NCBI GenBank assembly: GCA_026996855.1
Contig: JALWJZ010000069.1
Location: forward strand, 31,628 to 95,627
Origin: Anaerolineales bacterium
GTDB lineage: Bacteria; Chloroflexota; Anaerolineae; Anaerolineales; DRMV01
Direction: 5' to 3'
Length of the DNA stretch: 64,000 nt
The notes under the pieces were generated by a model, which ran no database searches, was not told where the DNA came from, and saw nothing but the letters and a program-made list of their open reading frames with translations. Numbering within the stretch: the first letter of the stretch is position 1; every line of letters starts with the position of its first letter. Position numbers and translations under genes: made by a program. Below are positions 324-64,000 of the stretch, piece after piece.

Positions 324-361
324 GAGACACCTCCCTGGGCGAAGGGGTGAGTGATCAGTGC

Positions 362-739
362 TCAGTGGTCCGTGTGAGTATGTCGCAAGGTGCGTTCCAG
401 TCCAAAGAGCATACGACGGATTTCGTGCATTTCCTGAGTGAGGGCTTGATATTCCTCGGACGTGAGATACACCAAATTCCGGCAGATTTCCATAAACGTA
501 TCCAGTTCGGCCAGAGAACCACGGGCAATGCGCAAATGGTTGAGAAATCCCTTGGTGGAATGCATACTGCCTTCCGCAATGTTTGCCGGTATGGATACGG
601 CTGCTCGACGGATTTGCGACGTGAGATTGAATTGCTCATGCGGGGGAAACCGGGCCGTAACCTGGTATATCGTGGAAACAAAGGTCACTGCCCGCTTCCA
701 CACCTCCAAGTCCCTATAGGAAAGCACCTTGTTCCCCAT
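362..739 (-). CDS. four-helix-bundle protein (23S rRNA intervening-sequence protein family)
   Basis: [57 protein letters not shown]...GSLAELDT is the hallmark pattern of this family (recalled, TIGR02436-like). ATG at 739 is preceded by GGAGGAGG. The track ORF extends to a GTG at 763. Confidence 0.8.
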
Positions 740-804
740 ACACCCCTCCTCCTCACCCATCACTATCGACTATCCACTATTCACTGTCCACTGGGCACTT
801 AACC

Positions 805-835
805 AAAAAATCTCCCGCCCCTCAGGGACGGGAGA
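805..835 (-). terminator. intrinsic terminator of the T-box leader
   Basis: Minus strand reads UCUCCCGUCCCUGAGGGGCGGGAGA followed by UUUUUU (plus 811-835 stem, 805-810 A-run). The 5' arm overlaps the T-box antiterminator sequence, as expected. Confidence 0.75.
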
Positions 836-19041: not shown

Positions 19042-19086
19042 ATAGATAATGTTGCAAGCGGCGAAGCCGCTTGCAACATTATCTAT
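19042..19086. repeat. perfect 21-bp inverted repeat with a GAA loop
   Basis: ATAGATAATGTTGCAAGCGGC-GAA-GCCGCTTGCAACATTATCTAT with no mismatch. It lies in a roughly 440-bp A/T-richer non-coding gap between the divergent Rrf2 operon and the GT39-like gene. Confidence 0.9.
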
Positions 19087-52763: not shown

Positions 52764-53756
52764 CTACGCCAGGGCCAGGGCCACGCCCACCAGCGCGGCC
52801 ATGACCTGGGTCAACCAAAAACGGGTCACCACCTGGGTTTCGGCCCAGCCGGATAGTTCGAAATGATGGTGCAACGGACTCATCTTGAAAATGCGACGGC
52901 CGCCCGTGAGTTTGAAATAGGCCACCTGCAAAATCACGCTCAGGGTTTCCAGCACGGGTATGAGGGCCAGAAAAGGAAGCACGAACCATTCCCCCAGCAT
53001 GAGCGCGACCACCCCCAGGGCCGCGCCCACGGCCAGGGAGCCGGTATCGCCCATGAAAACCTGGGCCGGATGGACGTTGAACCAGAGGAAGCCCAGCAAA
53101 CTCCCCGTGAGCAGGAAACAAAACTGCGCCAGTTCCATGGCCTCATGATGCAAAGCCAGGAAACCAAAAGCCGCAAAGGACGTGGCCGTAACCAGAGAAG
53201 CCAGACCGTCCAGGCCGTCGGTGAGGTTCACTGCGTTGGACGACCCCACGATGATGAAAATCCCCAGGGGGAAATACCACCACCCCACGGGCACCGGCTT
53301 GGGAATGCCGGGCAGGAACAGGGGCGGCGCGGCGTAGATGTGCTGAATCCACCAGACACCCACCGCGGCCAACAGCACCTGCACCACGAATTTGGTGCGG
53401 GCGCGAAGACCGTAGCCTCGCCGAATGCCCAGCCAGTCGTCCACCGCGCCCAAAAGCCCAAACCCAAAGACCATGGCCAGGGGCAACAGCACCACCTGCC
53501 CGGAAAACCGCAAACGATACACCCGCGTGGCGTGGATGAAGAGCAACATGAACACCACGGGCAACCAAATGACCCAACCGCCCATGGTCACCGTGCCCAG
53601 TTTGGCCAGGTGCCGCTCGGGCACGTCCGCTCGCAGGCCTTTCCCCATGCCCAAGGCCCGCAACAGACGCAACAGAGGCGGCGTCCACAGCCACGTGAGC
53701 AAAAAGGTGACCACCAGCAAACCCAGGGCCACCAGTCCAGGGTCAGGCGTGTGCAT
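52764..53756 (-). CDS. mraY: phospho-N-acetylmuramoyl-pentapeptide transferase
   Basis: GAVDDWLGI, NAVNLTDGLDGLA, FMGDTGSLAVG, PLHHHFELSGW. Confidence 0.95.
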   Translation of the reverse strand: MHTPDPGLVALGLLVVTFLLTWLWTPPLLRLLRALGMGKGLRADVPERHLAKLGTVTMGGWVIWLPVVFMLLFIHATRVYRLRFSGQVVLLPLAMVFGFGLLGAVDDWLGIRRGYGLRARTKFVVQVLLAAVGVWWIQHIYAAPPLFLPGIPKPVPVGWWYFPLGIFIIVGSSNAVNLTDGLDGLASLVTATSFAAFGFLALHHEAMELAQFCFLLTGSLLGFLWFNVHPAQVFMGDTGSLAVGAALGVVALMLGEWFVLPFLALIPVLETLSVILQVAYFKLTGGRRIFKMSPLHHHFELSGWAETQVVTRFWLTQVMAALVGVALALA

Positions 53757-59715: not shown

Positions 59716-59789
59716 TCACACAGAGCCACGGGGACACAGAGAATAGGCTGAAGAAGGCTAAAATTTTCTTCGTGTTTGCCTCCGTGAGA
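59716..59789 (+). repeat. CAC/GTG-rich hairpin element, copy 1 (degenerate)
   Basis: Left arm TCACACAGAGCCACGGGGACACAGAGAA (59716-59743), a 22-nt loop, and a shortened right arm TTCTTCGTGTTTGCCTCCGTGAGA (59766-59789). These form two roughly 10-bp helices of 8/10 each. Confidence 0.6.
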
Positions 59790-59979
59790 AAATGCGATGG
59801 CTTTCGCCGTTTTTGAAAAACGCCCGGGCCAAAATCGTGAAAAATGTATGAAACTCCGGCGCGACCATAACGGAAATCAAAACCCTATGTTATACTGATA
59901 ATTGTATTCCAGTCTTCCAACAACATTCGAACGGTCATGCGGGGAAATCGTGTCTTCTCTTTTGGAAGGAGGCACCCCT

Positions 59980-61551
59980 ATGACGGATTCCCTCACCATC
60001 CACATCCGCACCCGCACGCCCCTGTGGACCGGGGGCATCGACGGCACCATGGACCGCATCCACGAAACGGGGCTCATCGGCTCCCTGCGCTGGTGGTACG
60101 AGGCCATCGTGCGGGGGCTGGGGGGATACGCGTGTGACCCGACGGGACATGAGTACGAATTTACGGGCGAACGCCTGCGTCGCTATGAGCGTGCCCGGCA
60201 GCAAGGCAAAGACTGGTGGGAAGCCCTGGATGAAGCCGGCATTTGCGACGCGTGCAAGGTGTTCGGGACTACGGGCTGGCGGAGAAGGTTTCGGCTGGAA
60301 GCACGTCCCCTTGAAGGCGAATTTGACATTACCGAAGGCATGTTCCTCAGCGGGCGAGTGCATCCCGACAGAAGAAATCCTTACCGGACCGGTGGGTGGC
60401 TTTTGCGCGGCGGCTATCATGGCGAGTTGGAATTGAAGTTCATTGGCGACAAAGAGGTGCTGTGGTGTGAAATTTTGCCTGTCTTGCTTTTTATGGAGAA
60501 ATGGGGCGCCCTGGGCGCGAAGACTTCGTTGGGGTATGGCGTGTTTCAAATTCTTTCCATCAATGGACACCGCAAGGAAGCAGGCCAGTGTTGGCGGGAA
60601 TTTTTGAGGGAGAGCAGGGACATTGCCCCTCTTAACCTTCAGCAATGCTCAAGCTGGGTAGGTCAATGGTGGTGGAGAGGGGGATCATCAAACGGCAACC
60701 AATATCAAGGTATATTGCCTGCACTTACCAATATGTTCTTCGCTAAAGTACGGTTTTCTCCAGATGCGTCATCGGCTTCGGGGGAATGGTGGGAACAATT
60801 GTCAGAGGTGCGGTGGCTCAGTCAAGGCCAAATTCCTGAACAAGAAGCAACGTGGACAGGCGATCCTCAACGGCAACCCCCTGGCCCCTATGGAATTTCC
60901 AATCCTTTGCCCCTCTCCCGGCTTCAGTACTGGGTGGAGTGTCATAAGATGTTTCCAATCGCACCAATCCTACGTTCGCGTTTACGTTACGGCTATAGAT
61001 TTCCCAACGTCCAGGAGTTTCACTCCATATGCAATGGTGGTGGCGAAAGTGATTGGTGTAGGTTTGTGTTTGGGACAGTGCAGGGTAAAAGCCCCGTGTG
61101 TGGTTATTGCGGTACTCCGGTGCGACCGGATAGAGAAGACCAAAATCGCTGGTGGTGCAAGACTGGAAGGGTCTCACTGGATAACCCGGAAGTTGTTCAC
61201 GATGCAAAACGCATCCAAAGTAAAATTCGCATTTCGTGGGCATACTACATAAATGAGCAAGAGAGGGAAATACGCCTTTGGGGATGGCTCCCGGAAGATC
61301 AACGGGATCAACACAGCCAACAGCGTGCCTCACTCCTGCGGAAGTTGCGAAGTGTTCTGGGTGTCAATCGTTCCAACGCACGCCAATGGCATTCGGCCCA
61401 AAACGGCGCGCTGTGGTCGGCCCTCAATCTGATGCCAGCGCAAGTGTGCTGGTTTGAGCGAGGCGATAACGATAGAGAATCTTACCTGAAAGCCCTCTTG
61501 GAGGATTGCGGACAAACTTCACACGGAGACACGGGGAACACAGAGAAATAA
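59980..61551 (+). CDS. cmr1: type III CRISPR-associated RAMP protein, Cmr1-like (two RAMP-like halves)
   Basis: TPLWTGGIDG...IHETGLIGSLRWWYEAIVRGLGG, ICDACKVFGTTGWRRRF and a G-rich loop WGALGAKTSLGYGVF. The second half has CRFVFGT and SKIRISWAY. ATG 59980 follows GGAAGGAGG. The subfamily assignment is from memory only. Confidence 0.65.
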   Translation: MTDSLTIHIRTRTPLWTGGIDGTMDRIHETGLIGSLRWWYEAIVRGLGGYACDPTGHEYEFTGERLRRYERARQQGKDWWEALDEAGICDACKVFGTTGWRRRFRLEARPLEGEFDITEGMFLSGRVHPDRRNPYRTGGWLLRGGYHGELELKFIGDKEVLWCEILPVLLFMEKWGALGAKTSLGYGVFQILSINGHRKEAGQCWREFLRESRDIAPLNLQQCSSWVGQWWWRGGSSNGNQYQGILPALTNMFFAKVRFSPDASSASGEWWEQLSEVRWLSQGQIPEQEATWTGDPQRQPPGPYGISNPLPLSRLQYWVECHKMFPIAPILRSRLRYGYRFPNVQEFHSICNGGGESDWCRFVFGTVQGKSPVCGYCGTPVRPDREDQNRWWCKTGRVSLDNPEVVHDAKRIQSKIRISWAYYINEQEREIRLWGWLPEDQRDQHSQQRASLLRKLRSVLGVNRSNARQWHSAQNGALWSALNLMPAQVCWFERGDNDRESYLKALLEDCGQTSHGDTGNTEK

Positions 61552-61587
61552 TAGAAACTTCTCTGTGCTCTCTGTGGCTCTGTGTGA
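61519..61587 (+). repeat. CAC/GTG-rich hairpin element, copy 2
   Basis: TCACACGGAGACACGGGGAACACAGAGAA (61519-61547), an 11-nt loop, then TTCTCTGTGCTCTCTGTGGCTCTGTGTGA (61559-61587). Over 29 positions there are 24 Watson-Crick pairs, 3 G:U pairs (valid only as plus-strand RNA) and 2 mismatches. The cmr1-like stop TAA (61549-61551) lies in the loop. Confidence 0.85.
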
Positions 61588-61604
61588 GTTCTGTGGAAAA
61601 GGCG

Positions 61605-62066
61605 ATGAACGAGCAAGACCTGCACCGGCTTGTTGAACACCTGCAACAAACCCTGGGCGAGCGCCTGGAAGCGGTGGTGCTCTTCGGCTCCCGGGCCCGG
61701 GGCGAGGCCCGGCCCGAAAGCGATTGGGACCTGCTCGTCGTGGTCCAGGGCCTGCCCCGAAGCCCGCTGAAGCGATGGCAATGGTTTCTTGAGCAAGCCG
61801 GCCGTCCTGAGCCGGGCGTGGATGTCTTGCTCAAAACCCCCGAAGAATGGTACACGCATCTTTCCTCCCTTACGCTGGACGTGGCGCTGGATGGGCAGAT
61901 TCTCTACGATGCCCATGGCCGTATGAGCCGCTTCCTGGAACGGGTGCGGCAAAGCCTTCAAAAGGCAGGCCTGCGCCGGGAATTCCGCCGGGGGCACTAT
62001 CTCTGGAGATCGTCTTCCCACGAGAAGCCGTGGTACGAACGTCTTCGGGAGGCCCTTGCCCTATGA
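61605..62066 (+). CDS. minimal nucleotidyltransferase (MNT)
   Basis: VVLFGSRARGEARPESDWDLLVVV carries the GS...DxD motif. ATGA overlap with the HEPN gene. Confidence 0.8.
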   Translation: MNEQDLHRLVEHLQQTLGERLEAVVLFGSRARGEARPESDWDLLVVVQGLPRSPLKRWQWFLEQAGRPEPGVDVLLKTPEEWYTHLSSLTLDVALDGQILYDAHGRMSRFLERVRQSLQKAGLRREFRRGHYLWRSSSHEKPWYERLREALAL

Positions 62067-62503
62067 GTTCGCCCGTCACATACAGGTTTCGCCTGGCCCG
62101 GGGGTTCCTGCAAGAGGCCGAACAGGACGCTTCCCTTGGCCGCTGGCGAGCGTGCGTCGCCCACGCGCAACTGGCCGTGGAAAATGCACTGAAGGCCGTC
62201 ATCGCCTTGTTTGCTCCTGTGCCACGAACCCACGCCCCCACAGATGTTCTGCGCATGATGCTGGAAGAGGGCGACATTCCCCAGACCATGCGGACTGATG
62301 TTCAGGAATTGGTGGACATCGTGCAAGGCTTGGATTTGGCCACTATCCACATCCAGACCGACTACGGCGACGAAACCCACGGCTTGACGCCCTGGGAACT
62401 CTTCTCCGAAGAAGACGCCCGCGAAGCCCTGGCCATCGCCCGGCGGGTGGTGGCGAAGGCCGCGAGGCTGACTCAAGAACAAGGAGGCGCCGATGAAGCG
62501 TGA
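62063..62503 (+). CDS. HEPN-domain protein
   Basis: FRLARGFLQEAEQDASLGRWRACVAHAQLAVENALKAVIALF is a HEPN helix pair like the 8715 gene. It is partnered with the MNT. Its last 11 nt overlap the start of the cmr6-like gene. Confidence 0.75.
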   Translation: MSSPVTYRFRLARGFLQEAEQDASLGRWRACVAHAQLAVENALKAVIALFAPVPRTHAPTDVLRMMLEEGDIPQTMRTDVQELVDIVQGLDLATIHIQTDYGDETHGLTPWELFSEEDAREALAIARRVVAKAARLTQEQGGADEA

Positions 62504-63680
62504 ATTTTGGGCAGAGTTTGATTTGTACAATGAGCCTCAGAAACGTAATCTCATCCATTACTTTGTTGGAAAATCTCAGCGTAACGGAGAGCCACCGCAG
62601 CCACCTGAGCGACAAAATGGTCAGTTATCATGGGAATTGTTAGAAAACCAGGCCGTCCGACAACATATGTTGGCCCAACTTTTGGCTTCCGAAGAGAAAT
62701 GCGCCAAGACCAAATGCAAAGATTACGCCAAGGGCAAAAACGGCCTGCAATGGTGGTATTATGCTGGGAATCTTGCGGATCCACAAGGTGAATTTCAGAA
62801 CTTTCTGCGAAACCGCGTAAGGTGGATGGCGTCTGTCCTTGGTCTTGTCTATCAGCAAACTATAGTAGTCCCCGCCCTCCCCGACCTCTCCCGCTTCCCG
62901 CCCGGCACCTGGGCCGTTCAGGTCACTTTCACCCTGCGCAAGCCCTACATCAGCAAGGACGATGTGGACTTCTACATCCTGGACAACCCTGTCAAGAAGG
63001 AATGGGTCTTCAAGGTGCCCTACGTGGCCCCCAGCCAGTGGAAGGGCGCGCTGCGGGCGGCCATGGTGCGGGAACTGGTCATGGCTTTTGGGGAAGGTGA
63101 AATAAACGAAGACGAGTTTGTCGAAAAGCGACTTCAAATGTATCGCCTTTTCGGCAATGAAAAGGATGGCACGGCTGAGTTTCTCAACCGTACCCTGGCA
63201 CGGTTCCGCGTAGGCCCACCGCCCCAAGAAAATGGTAAGGAAGCAACAAGACAATGGCGAGAACGGCTGGAACGGGAAACGAAAGTTGTTGCTGAGGAAT
63301 TTGAAAGCGCGTTGCGTGAGAATGGGTATCGCGTTGGGGATATTGAGAGTTTCCAGGGCCGCCTCCACTTCTACCCCACCTTCTTCGACCGCATCGGCCA
63401 GGAGATCATCAACCCCCACGACCGGAAGAAGGGCGCGGGGAAGCACCCCATTTACTTTGAGTGTGTGCCCCCGGAGACCAGCGGTATTTTCACCCTGCTC
63501 TATGTCCCCATCGGCGGTGGCCCAAAGGACGAGACAACCTGCAAAGCCGATCTGGAAGCAGTGGTACAAGGCATCCGCGCCATGCTCACCACATACGGCT
63601 TCGGCGCCAAGACCAGCAGCGGGTATGGTGTGGCGAAAATTGAAAATTTTCACACGGAGGCACAGAGAACACAGGGATAA
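62493..63680 (+). CDS. cmr6: type III CRISPR-associated RAMP (Cas7-fold) protein, Cmr6-like
   Basis: ILDNPVKKEWVFKVPYVAPSQWKGALRAA, MYRLFGNE, GRLHFYPTFFD...IINPH and a C-terminal G-rich loop YGFGAKTSSGYGVAKI. ATG follows AAGGAGG. The first roughly 110 aa are A/T-richer and were not recognised. Confidence 0.65.
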   Translation: MKREFWAEFDLYNEPQKRNLIHYFVGKSQRNGEPPQPPERQNGQLSWELLENQAVRQHMLAQLLASEEKCAKTKCKDYAKGKNGLQWWYYAGNLADPQGEFQNFLRNRVRWMASVLGLVYQQTIVVPALPDLSRFPPGTWAVQVTFTLRKPYISKDDVDFYILDNPVKKEWVFKVPYVAPSQWKGALRAAMVRELVMAFGEGEINEDEFVEKRLQMYRLFGNEKDGTAEFLNRTLARFRVGPPPQENGKEATRQWRERLERETKVVAEEFESALRENGYRVGDIESFQGRLHFYPTFFDRIGQEIINPHDRKKGAGKHPIYFECVPPETSGIFTLLYVPIGGGPKDETTCKADLEAVVQGIRAMLTTYGFGAKTSSGYGVAKIENFHTEAQRTQG

Positions 63681-63712
63681 AAATCCTCCGTGTCCTCTGT
63701 GCCTCTGTGTGA
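63650..63712 (+). repeat. CAC/GTG-rich hairpin element, copy 3
   Basis: TCACACGGAGGCACAGAGAACACAGGGAT (63650-63678), loop AAAA, then ATCCTCCGTGTCCTCTGTGCCTCTGTGTGA (63683-63712). The outer 23 positions give 21 WC, 1 G:U and 1 mismatch. The stem is extended by AUUUU/AAAAU. The cmr6-like stop TAA (63678-63680) sits at the apex. Confidence 0.85.
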
Positions 63713-63734
63713 AAATCCCTTGGAGACATAGGTT

Positions 63735-64000
63735 ATGCACGAGAATCAAATTGGCACAATCATTGTGCAAACGGCTATAGAACTGCACAAAGACCTTGGG
63801 CCAGGACTGTTAGAGAGCGTGTATGAAGTGCTGCTGGCCCATCGTCTGCGGCAGAAAGGCCTACGGGTGGAACGCCAGGTTCCAATAGCCATTGAAGTCG
63901 ATGGCTACCGGTTTGAAGAAGCCTTTCGCGCGGACCTGATTGTGGAAGGCAAGGTGATCGTGGAGTTGAAGTCTGTCGAGCAAGTGCACCCCGCGCACAA
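63735..64000 (+). CDS. GxxExxY protein (PD-(D/E)XK-like small protein), truncated by the window end
   Basis: MHENQIGTIIVQTAIELHKDLGPGLLESVYEVLLAHRLRQKGLRVERQVPIAIEVDGYRFEEAFRADLIVEGKVIVELKSVEQ contains the eponymous G..E..Y and a D...ELK motif. Not in the ORF track because no stop falls within the window. Confidence 0.8.
   Translation, partial: MHENQIGTIIVQTAIELHKDLGPGLLESVYEVLLAHRLRQKGLRVERQVPIAIEVDGYRFEEAFRADLIVEGKVIVELKSVEQVHPAH

Follow-up and report, generated by a model that had tools for sequence, protein, structure and literature searches.

The 64-kb stretch of Anaerolineales DNA analysed here (the window) ends in a type III-B Cmr locus in which cmr1 and cmr6 run into hairpins built from CACRGRG heptamers. 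These hairpins are probably copies of a palindromic element without an open reading frame (ORF), of the same type as the intervening sequences (IVSs) of 23S rRNA, and resemble selfish insertions and not a purpose-built RNA structure. The element encodes the last residues of both RAMP proteins, its arms recur in many phyla and are concentrated beside GxxExxY genes, and its architecture of tandem-heptamer arms is that of IVS stems.

Anatomy of the hairpins and the protein tails they encode

Each arm of the element consists of three CACRGRG units with spacers of 1-3 nt (period 8-10 nt), and the outer ends of the two arms read TCACAC ... GTGTGA. The Cmr region of the window contains the following features.

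59716-59789 (+), copy 1, decayed, at the upstream border of the Cmr locus, recognized by its arm motif (fold z -2.4)
59716-59743 (+), left arm of copy 1, intact, with three CACRGRG units; the right arm is degenerate
59980-61551 (+), cmr1-like RAMP gene (NCBIfam TIGR01894, E 3.9e-13)
61512-61594 (+), stem of copy 2, a complete hairpin by folding; arms 61519-61547 and 61559-61587, loop 61548-61558
61605-62066 (+), MNT nucleotidyltransferase gene (NCBIfam)
62063-62503 (+), HEPN, a 146-aa ORF whose counterparts in related loci match Pfam HEPN
62493-63680 (+), cmr6-like RAMP gene (NCBIfam)
63646-63716 (+), stem of copy 3, a complete hairpin by folding; arms 63650-63677 and 63686-63712, loop GATAAAAATC
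63735-64000 (+), GxxExxY gene, PD-(D/E)XK fold, PF13366 (TIGR04256, E 2.1e-26), cut by the window end

Copies 2 and 3 folded at -44.8 kcal/mol (z -8.0) and -48.8 kcal/mol (z -11.4), respectively, and none of 200 shuffles of either one folded as well. The 36-nt arms of copy 2 are 78% complementary and the 27-nt arms of copy 3 are 93% complementary. Pairing in the stems is carried by the invariant CAC/GTG and G/C columns, and the loops of 8-11 nt contain no ORF. The first-pass annotation, made from the letters of the window alone, had counted three copies. Two of them are strong hairpins, whereas copy 1 combines a good left arm with a decayed right arm and folds only weakly. A 19-nt arm motif had five occurrences in the window where 0.28 were expected, always within copies 1-3, which all lie within 4 kb, and was absent from the other 60 kb. 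A further match had been noted at 364-380. It extends over 13 nt only, TCACACGGACCAC, and then changes into CACTGAK units, which make up the downstream arm in another pair of repeats that surrounds a four-helix-bundle gene. The expectation that a small gene starts shortly 3' of each hairpin was correct for copy 2 (MNT gene, 17 nt) and copy 3 (GxxExxY gene, 22 nt), but the 33-codon ORF after copy 1 has nothing that supports its status as a gene. No Rfam family reached its gathering score anywhere in the window, and at a permissive E-value the matches were confined to generic hairpin models of miRNA precursors.

Stems of high GC content at the 3' ends of genes could be intrinsic transcription terminators, and in many Gemmatimonadota copies of the same family the stem indeed stands between a preceding A-run and a following T-run, like bidirectional terminators. 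In the window and in related Cmr loci, however, T-runs precede the stems and A-runs follow them, and the stem of copy 3 is lengthened by these flanks. A terminator scan made no call at the window hairpins, which moreover are internal to an operon with further genes downstream that have to be transcribed. With neither a U-tract nor a terminator call we rejected this identity, and we regard its probability as negligible.

T is absent from the left arm and A from the right arm, so that TAA, TAG and TGA are impossible within the arms in any frame and on either strand. Any ORF that enters the element therefore runs on to the loop, where the first T precedes purines (GATAAAA, GATGAAA) and gives a stop codon. 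Both RAMP ORFs read through the left arm and stop in the loop, as had been noted from the sequence: cmr1 ends at TAA 61549-61551 in copy 2, followed by an in-frame TAG, and cmr6 at TAA 63678-63680 in copy 3. The last 10 codons of cmr1 (SHGDTGNTEK) and its stop thus lie in the left arm and loop of copy 2, and the last nine codons of cmr6 (HTEAQRTQG) and its stop lie in copy 3.

The C-termini of orthologues were compared in loci that are cited here by label (Lnnn, of which L001-L120 come from the arm-pattern scan described below). Cmr1 orthologues end in ...YLKALLxxCxx plus a short variable tail; cmr1 of L182 has its own stop codon with a hairpin afterwards, and cmr1 of L122 overlaps the MNT gene and has no hairpin. 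Most Cmr6 orthologues have a native tail of ~28 residues (...VADV...W..F..AW..) that is absent from the window Cmr6. About ten others carry hairpin-encoded tails, among them HTGAQGTQG, HTETQGAQR, HTETQRVQG and LTQRHREHGG. Their junction points vary, and the tails are always in frame and end at the loop stop. Since hairpin-less orthologues end in other residues, the tails SHGDTGNTEK and FHTEAQRTQG are encoded by the element, in agreement with what had been proposed for them. C-terminal tails of 9-10 residues such as HTEAQRTQG, TQRHREHGG and PRASVSQ should be annotated as read-through into the element. Palindromes that insert in ORFs or at their ends and add residues to the host protein are known from the Rickettsia palindromic elements and from MITEs (miniature inverted-repeat transposable elements) such as Correia. 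Here, the overlap comprises only the last 9-10 codons and the stop, not an in-frame internal insertion, because the arms lack stop codons. Of the features of MITEs, inverted repeats are present, and no consistent flanking direct repeat was seen by eye.

Hairpins in related Cmr loci and tests for selection on RNA

In total, 82 loci of this Cmr subtype were compared, namely the window, two contigs found via exact proteins and 79 metagenome loci. In the usual state there is no hairpin and the stop codon of cmr6 adjoins or overlaps the start of cas10; arms were found in only about 12 of the 82. A hairpin directly 3' of cmr6 recurred in orthologues 56-78% identical. In L121, hairpins followed cmr6, the GxxExxY gene and the genes for a 1169-aa Cas10-like protein, a 415-aa RAMP protein and a 228-aa protein, with none at the neighbouring WYL and Cas3 genes. 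Because most related loci are hairpin-free, with arms in so few of them and with variable junction points, the element would have reached one clade of type III-B loci secondarily, along with the GxxExxY gene. The GC content of the Cmr region (60001-64000) is 0.56, compared to 0.58-0.67, mostly above 0.62, in the rest of the window, which fits a horizontally acquired island. The closest named homologue of the window Cmr6 is that of an Ardenticatena sp. (71% identity).

The MNT-HEPN pair had been linked to the hairpin that precedes it. It sits between cmr1 and cmr6 without a hairpin in L122, L129, L157 and L159, with MNT alone detected in L125 and L141, and a hairpin without MNT-HEPN occupies the same interval in L124 and L182. 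The two features are thus independent, and MNT-HEPN was discarded as a hairpin-delivered cassette since so many loci hold it hairpin-free. As a separate observation, many loci of the type III-B subtype compared here have the pair conserved in the cmr1-cmr6 interval, L226 and L227 being further examples, and it looks like an integral accessory module.

The cmr6-cas10 junction also draws small foreign genes in many lineages, which lie directly 3' of cmr6 in L134, L139, L161, L174, L175 and L177. Among the junction genes is the N-terminus of a Y1 transposase (MSHDPKRHHRRSIRLKGYDYTQPG...; L130 1571-1723, L137 808-954, L159 2633-2779) resembling the tyrosine transposases associated with repetitive extragenic palindromes (REPs), or RAYTs. 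No association of the hairpins with RAYTs was found: these three RAYT-like genes are not beside arms, and no Y1 transposase was present among 114 proteins flanking hairpins outside Gemmatimonadota. Another junction gene encodes a ~75-aa protein (PPRHIVWS...DPFQRRWY...), and an AbiEii gene follows it in L122 (8900-9797), L141 and L226.

The first-pass annotation had read nearly every non-Watson-Crick position of copies 2 and 3 as G:U on the plus strand, and had taken this as an argument for a transcribed RNA structure. The counts do not bear this out. Copy 2 has three G·U against two A·C pairs and copy 3 one against two, and for copy 3 the minus strand gives the more stable fold (-55.4 versus -48.8 kcal/mol). 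Over 18 Cmr-locus hairpins the ratio of sense G·U to A·C was 50:45 (p = 0.68), and the summed folding energies were -622 in sense and -582 in antisense, with sense better in 11 of the 18. Compensatory covariation was absent from the 18-copy alignment: 88.4% of the cells were paired compared to 90.2% after shuffling, 500 of 500 shuffles being at least as high, and the covariation score was 0.108 against a shuffled mean of 0.143. At the variable R/Y positions of these copies the arms were anti-correlated (odds ratio 0.3). The near-identical copy of copy 3 in L123 differs by two changes, neither of which is compensatory. In the wider family, among the matches listed, the arms match at variable positions (A-T 287, G-C 52, G·T 20, A·C 17; odds ratio 44), and co-directional contexts gave no strand bias (18 G·U versus 24 A·C). 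The hairpins show no selection specific to RNA, and they should be labelled neither structured RNAs nor terminators.

An RNA structure selected by the operon, either as a 3'-end stabilizer or as a translational insulator that sets subunit stoichiometry, would account for the very stable stems, for the recurrence of a hairpin after cmr6 in orthologues as little as 56% and up to 78% identical, and for the position of most L121 cistrons in front of a hairpin. We nevertheless consider it very improbable. Neither pairing nor covariation rises above the shuffles, the arms are anti-correlated at variable positions, sense and antisense are nearly equivalent both in their mismatches and in their folding, L123 and copy 3 differ by non-compensatory changes, and most Cmr loci of the same subtype do without the hairpin.

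Link to GxxExxY genes and spread across phyla

The Cmr loci compared contain six GxxExxY genes, every one of them bracketed by hairpins. Three positions are represented: four of the genes follow cmr6 (window, L121, L122, L123), one follows cas10 (L141) and one precedes cmr1 (L187). The L187 gene is preceded by three hairpins in tandem and followed by a single one. In Bacteroides finegoldii the arms enclose the gene, which lies between radA and the gene of a FAD-dependent protein: the left arm TTCACCACAGAGGACGCAGAGGACACGGAGG is located upstream and the right arm CTCTGTGACCTCTGTGTCCTCTGTGGTGAA downstream, and the two form a duplex of -77.9 kcal/mol (z -7.6). Split arms are also present in Bernardetia, around a gene between ade and the mannose-1-phosphate guanylyltransferase gene. 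Variant heptamers accompany the gene in Sphingomonas (CGCGAAG units, between fabD and fabG), Gemmatirosa (CGCAGAG) and Treponema (CACGGAT). Six further homologues (Opitutaceae, Pirellulales, a deltaproteobacterium and others) all had CACRGRG arms within 200 nt, in arrangements that include split hairpins, hairpin-gene-hairpin and tandem hairpins; in Opitutaceae the gene has a left arm on one side and a right arm on the other. Altogether, 21 GxxExxY loci comprised 14 with CACRGRG arms, three with variant heptamers and four with direct repeats only or nothing. In 13 loci fetched by homology, arm density was 2.75 per kb within 250 nt of the GxxExxY gene and 0.36 per kb elsewhere (p = 8e-9), where the arms mostly extend the arrays near the gene.

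The best 120 GxxExxY homologues are 68-94% identical despite being labelled Anaerolineae, Planctomycetota, Opitutaceae and Deltaproteobacteria. Such identity fits horizontal spread, which would explain the conservation of the arms across phyla. Some of the homologues end in tails encoded by a left or a right arm. Comparison by tblastn of the four-helix-bundle, MNT, HEPN, Cmr1 and Cmr6 proteins of the window with 120 of the motif loci gave no match, and the GxxExxY protein gave two. The absence of a cassette link first suggested by this comparison was overturned once the analysis began from the GxxExxY genes. Cassette junctions of a mobile system had been one of the options listed for the hairpins, and for copy 3 this option gained support, as in many genomes GxxExxY genes are found between such arms or bracketed by them.

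Units of gene plus hairpin could also be moved by site-specific DNA recombination, with the hairpin acting, like attC, as folded single-stranded DNA. The hairpin-gene-hairpin arrangement at three positions of otherwise syntenic Cmr loci, the tandem hairpin units with duplicated flanks (L122, L187, L233, L234), the symmetry of mismatches between strands and, in the wider family, the strong match of the arms at variable positions (odds ratio 44) with G·T about as frequent as A·C are all in line with such sites. On the other side, no integrase or recombinase was found near the loci examined (for the integrase, the gene tables of L121, L122 and L226-L235), and the ends TCACAC/GTGTGA are not attC core sites (RYYYAAC ... 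GTTRRRY). In addition, core cmr and cas10 genes of L121, implausible as independent cassettes, also precede hairpins, and most solo hairpins sit among housekeeping genes. Taken together, we hold attC-like sites to be quite improbable.

Tandem hairpin arrays with units of ~60-190 nt were observed in L122 (8460-8750), L187 (965-1200), L234 (2740-2990), L230 (3749-4504) and L233 (3001-3600). The unit sometimes includes the last ~20-90 nt of the preceding gene (L122, L233), which points to duplication of hairpin-plus-flank units.

The spread of the family was determined by scanning one genome per species with the pattern TCACACRGRG-N1-3-CACRGRG-N1-3-CACRGRG. The motif is repeated well beyond the window: at least 203 matches were obtained in at least 120 loci, many of them as +/- pairs 10-35 nt apart, compared to ~2-3 chance matches by our own estimate, which assumes equal base frequencies. 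Judged by record titles, the matches listed come from more than 10 phyla and include Gemmatimonadota (many copies per contig, with up to six arm matches per 8 kb), Verrucomicrobiota, Bacteroidota, Chloroflexota, Planctomycetota, Spirochaetota, Acidobacteriota, Pseudomonadota, Desulfobacterota, Nitrospirota, others and one Methanocellaceae archaeon. Isolates with the element are found in Bacteroides and Gemmatirosa, and arms occur in Nostoc and Scytonema. Among the matches listed, 58 of 75 full hairpins lay between convergent or co-directional genes and five between divergent ones, counts that are approximate because genes in L001-L120 were called by ORF and a heuristic based on GC content at third codon positions. 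The hairpins in this set are typically located 9-16 nt past a stop codon. By Pfam, the 114 proteins flanking them outside Gemmatimonadota were a housekeeping mix with no transposase, Y1 included. A family specific to RAMP genes is incompatible with this distribution, in which most copies elsewhere flank ordinary housekeeping genes.

In B. finegoldii and B. ovatus the element is present between gmd and the GDP-fucose synthase gene (fcl) and also after miaB. The hairpin in the gmd-fcl spacer of B. ovatus (L204 3001-3062) is inverted in its loop and inner units with respect to that of B. finegoldii (L203 3001-3061), which suggests either flipping by recombination between the arms or independent insertions in both orientations. 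Other heptamer-run families, with ATCCGTG/CACGGAT and CGCAGAT units, were seen beside CACRGRG arms in gut and termite-gut genomes (L018, L008, L012, L057, L110, L112).

Part of these data would be met by an ordinary REP- or MITE-like selfish palindrome, spread by a transposase unrelated to GxxExxY and having no RNA role, its likeness to IVSs being superficial. Among the matches listed, the high copy number in Gemmatimonadota, the sites directly past genes and the random housekeeping flanks are as expected of such an element, and so are the lack of wobble strand bias (18:24 in the wider family, 50:45 in Cmr loci), the lack of covariation in the Cmr-locus copies, the patchy presence among orthologous loci and the existence of decayed or rearranged copies (copy 1; L137, L141). 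More generally, REPs, bacterial interspersed mosaic elements (BIMEs) and REP doublets forming hairpins (REPINs) are likewise dispersed imperfect palindromes past genes and within or between operons, with high copy number in some genomes and tandem clusters. They differ in that the arms described here are tandem sub-repeats and not a single palindrome, and in that the copies in the window are confined to one locus. There is no GTAG/CGTC 5' tag, the arms starting with (T)CACAC, no Y1 transposase among the 114 flanking proteins, and the RAYT-like genes of L130, L137 and L159 are not beside hairpins. REP families are usually genus-specific, whereas the CACRGRG family spans phyla, is strongly enriched beside GxxExxY genes and has its heptamer design in common with IVS stems. 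A plain REP- or MITE-like palindrome is therefore rather unlikely.

Intergenic heptamer-repeat families have been described with the units GGGAATC in Xanthomonas and GGGGA(C/T)T in Nostoc (PMC4692102) and TAACTGA in Beggiatoaceae, Cyanobacteria and Bacteroidetes (PMC4679880). Their cross-phylum distribution was found puzzling, and horizontal transfer was suggested without a mechanism (PMC4692102, PMC4679880). These families, including the cyanobacterial short tandemly repeated repetitive (STRR) sequences, share with the CACRGRG family the short intergenic tandem units near gene ends and the frequent convergent inverted pairs (70-75 cases in Xanthomonas). They differ in unit sequence, and the CACRGRG arrays are short (3-4 units), have a period of 8-10 nt and are usually paired. 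The terms S23 and 'four helix' are absent from both papers. In the literature searched, none of six arm sequences was found, GxxExxY, PF13366 and TIGR04256 were mentioned only in passing, and REP combined with Gemmatimonadetes returned nothing relevant; within the scope of this search, neither the CACRGRG family nor its association with GxxExxY genes nor any IVS-type element in an operon of protein-coding genes turned out to have been described.

Likeness to 23S rRNA intervening sequences and possible fate of the element

The resemblance to rRNA IVSs, which had been noted at the outset, is the best supported of the earlier claims. The IVS of Coxiella has a 28-bp terminal stem with tandem GACAGAT/GACAGAA heptamers upstream of its S23p ORF, and is excised in vitro by RNase III of C. 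burnetii and of E. coli, the cleavage site being the first repeat (PMC4990558). Mobility of IVSs is a long-standing suspicion (PMC4990558). In Azospirillum lipoferum 4B we found a four-helix-bundle ORF inside the 23S rRNA gene (Rfam LSU, 2150 bits), a classical IVS, with arms ...GACGGAT GACAGAG GACGGAG GACAGAA... and their complement forming a stem of ~31 bp. Copies 2 and 3 have in common with these IVSs the inverted repeats that give a stem of ~28-31 bp, the tandem-heptamer arms, with CACRGRG one base away from the GACRGAG of Azospirillum and from the GACAGAT of Coxiella, and the toleration inside a transcribed unit. An IVS may also carry a small ORF of the four-helix-bundle (S23p) type in its loop. 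The differences concern location and cargo. IVSs of 23S rRNA (helix 25/45; Coxiella, Leptospira, Salmonella) reside in rRNA, and the window copies in an mRNA operon between cas genes, no rRNA having been found in the window. The window loops are without an ORF, the associated gene is GxxExxY and not a four-helix-bundle gene, and the window copies overlap the coding 3' ends of host genes.

Four-helix-bundle genes outside rRNA show a related arrangement. In isolates they sit co-oriented between host genes, including cas genes: between cas6 and cas4 in the cyanobacteria Anabaena sp. 90 (L215) and Pseudanabaena galeata (L220), and between cas10/cmr2 and cmr3 in Picosynechococcus PCC 7003 (L221). 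The exception is Nostoc edaphicum, in which the gene lies on the opposite strand between nrdB and nrdA. Their flanks contain heptamer-sized tandem arrays, of which the upstream one is usually rich in purines and the downstream one complementary to it, as in N. edaphicum ((GGGAGTA)n / (TACTCCC)n, z -6.3), Anabaena (GGTGACA / TGTCACC, z -6.6) and Geminocystis (GGGAAAA / TTTTCCC, z -9.7). These duplex z-scores, and likewise that of the B. finegoldii arms, are crude, being based on mononucleotide shuffles; they are inflated by low-complexity direct arrays (L220) and insensitive in GC-rich DNA (the window gene, L221). Of the 38 flanks analysed for GxxExxY or four-helix-bundle genes of isolates, 29 had arrays of period 5-11, compared to ~0.28 arrays expected per flank. 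In some four-helix-bundle cases the arrays were direct and not inverted (L220, L222); L220 has ~15 GCTAAAA units upstream (1100-1210) and ~14 GCCAAAA units downstream (1578-1680) of the gene.

The window contains such a gene at its other end.

345-812 (-), four-helix-bundle cassette with heptamer arrays on either side; gene 362-739
761-812, upstream array of CAGTGRA/TAGTGRA units (Tandem Repeats Finder array 761-792)
345-383, downstream array, TCACACGGAC CACTGAG CACTGAT CACTCAC, partly complementary to 761-812

This gene belongs to the 'S23p'/IVS-protein family and lies between a structured-looking leader/tRNA-Met region and the next minus-strand gene. Complementarity of its arms is weak (z +0.6, in a test that is insensitive in GC-rich DNA). 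We regard 345-812 as a second small-gene cassette of the hairpin-element architecture, with arms that pair poorly.

In the element that we favour, a few CACRGRG units in tandem would make up each arm, and the two arms would be complementary, in the manner of an IVS stem. The loaded form of the element would harbour a small gene, either enclosed by the arms or adjacent to them, GxxExxY here and four-helix-bundle genes where other heptamer variants are found; ORFs between arms are seen in L210, L232 and L218. In the Cmr locus it would have occupied junctions between cistrons and overwritten the 3' ends of cmr1 and cmr6. Once transcribed, a stem of 27-31 bp without a U-tract would have to form, and its likeliest fate, by analogy with IVS stems, would be cleavage by RNase III, so that the operon transcript would be cut between cistrons. 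The intercistronic RNase III sites of phage T7 offer a parallel: related hairpins punctuate a polycistronic transcript, internal loops direct a single cut, and processing is proven, as opposed to the window hairpins, for which it is predicted from the likeness to IVSs. If the stem is cut, the cmr1 and cmr6 mRNAs would be left without stop codons, which raises the question of whether the insertions lower expression of both subunits.

Several points weigh against this interpretation. No target-site duplication was found on inspection of the flanks by eye, and no transposase or recombinase at the loci examined. None of the window copies has a gene in its loop, and the GxxExxY gene stands beside a complete hairpin and not between half arms. 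Four of the 21 GxxExxY loci (L001, L211, L213, L214) have direct repeats only or nothing. The Cmr-locus copies lack covariation and 24% of their variable positions are A·C mismatches, so that the stem is not visibly under selection. Cleavage by RNase III is an analogy drawn from rRNA, and a cut in the left arm, which would strip cmr1 and cmr6 of their stop codons, looks costly. Finally, the similarity across phyla could in part reflect convergence of simple heptamer repeats.

A broader proposal can be put forward only tentatively, and we would sooner expect it to fail than to hold in all its parts: GxxExxY and four-helix-bundle genes may be the cargo of a single, cross-phylum class of mobile cassettes. 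These would be bounded by complementary tandem-heptamer arms and insert into transcribed DNA, such as rRNA helices or the intercistronic gaps of housekeeping and CRISPR-Cas operons. They would be tolerated because the host RNase III cuts the stem formed by the two arms and so excises the cassette from the host RNA, with no ligation. Short hairpins of the CACRGRG type would then be cargo-less derivatives and the classical 23S rRNA IVS a special case that landed in rRNA, and the GxxExxY PD-(D/E)XK protein might be the nuclease that mobilizes the element. If true, the origin of 23S IVSs would be joined to that of the multi-copy GxxExxY and four-helix-bundle ('S23p') families, so far separate puzzles. 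The excess and cross-phylum spread of intergenic heptamer repeats and the small foreign genes in CRISPR-Cas and housekeeping operons would be connected with them as well.

Two further features of the window were recorded. A perfect inverted repeat of 21+21 nt with a 3-nt spacer at 19042-19086 (ATAGATAATGTTGCAAGCGGC / GCCGCTTGCAACATTATCTAT) is the sole other long close palindrome in the window. At 53352-53452 on the minus strand, ARAGORN called a tRNA-Arg(ACG) of 101 nt with the anticodon at position 40, which is below the Rfam tRNA gathering score and could be a gene with an intron or a miscall.

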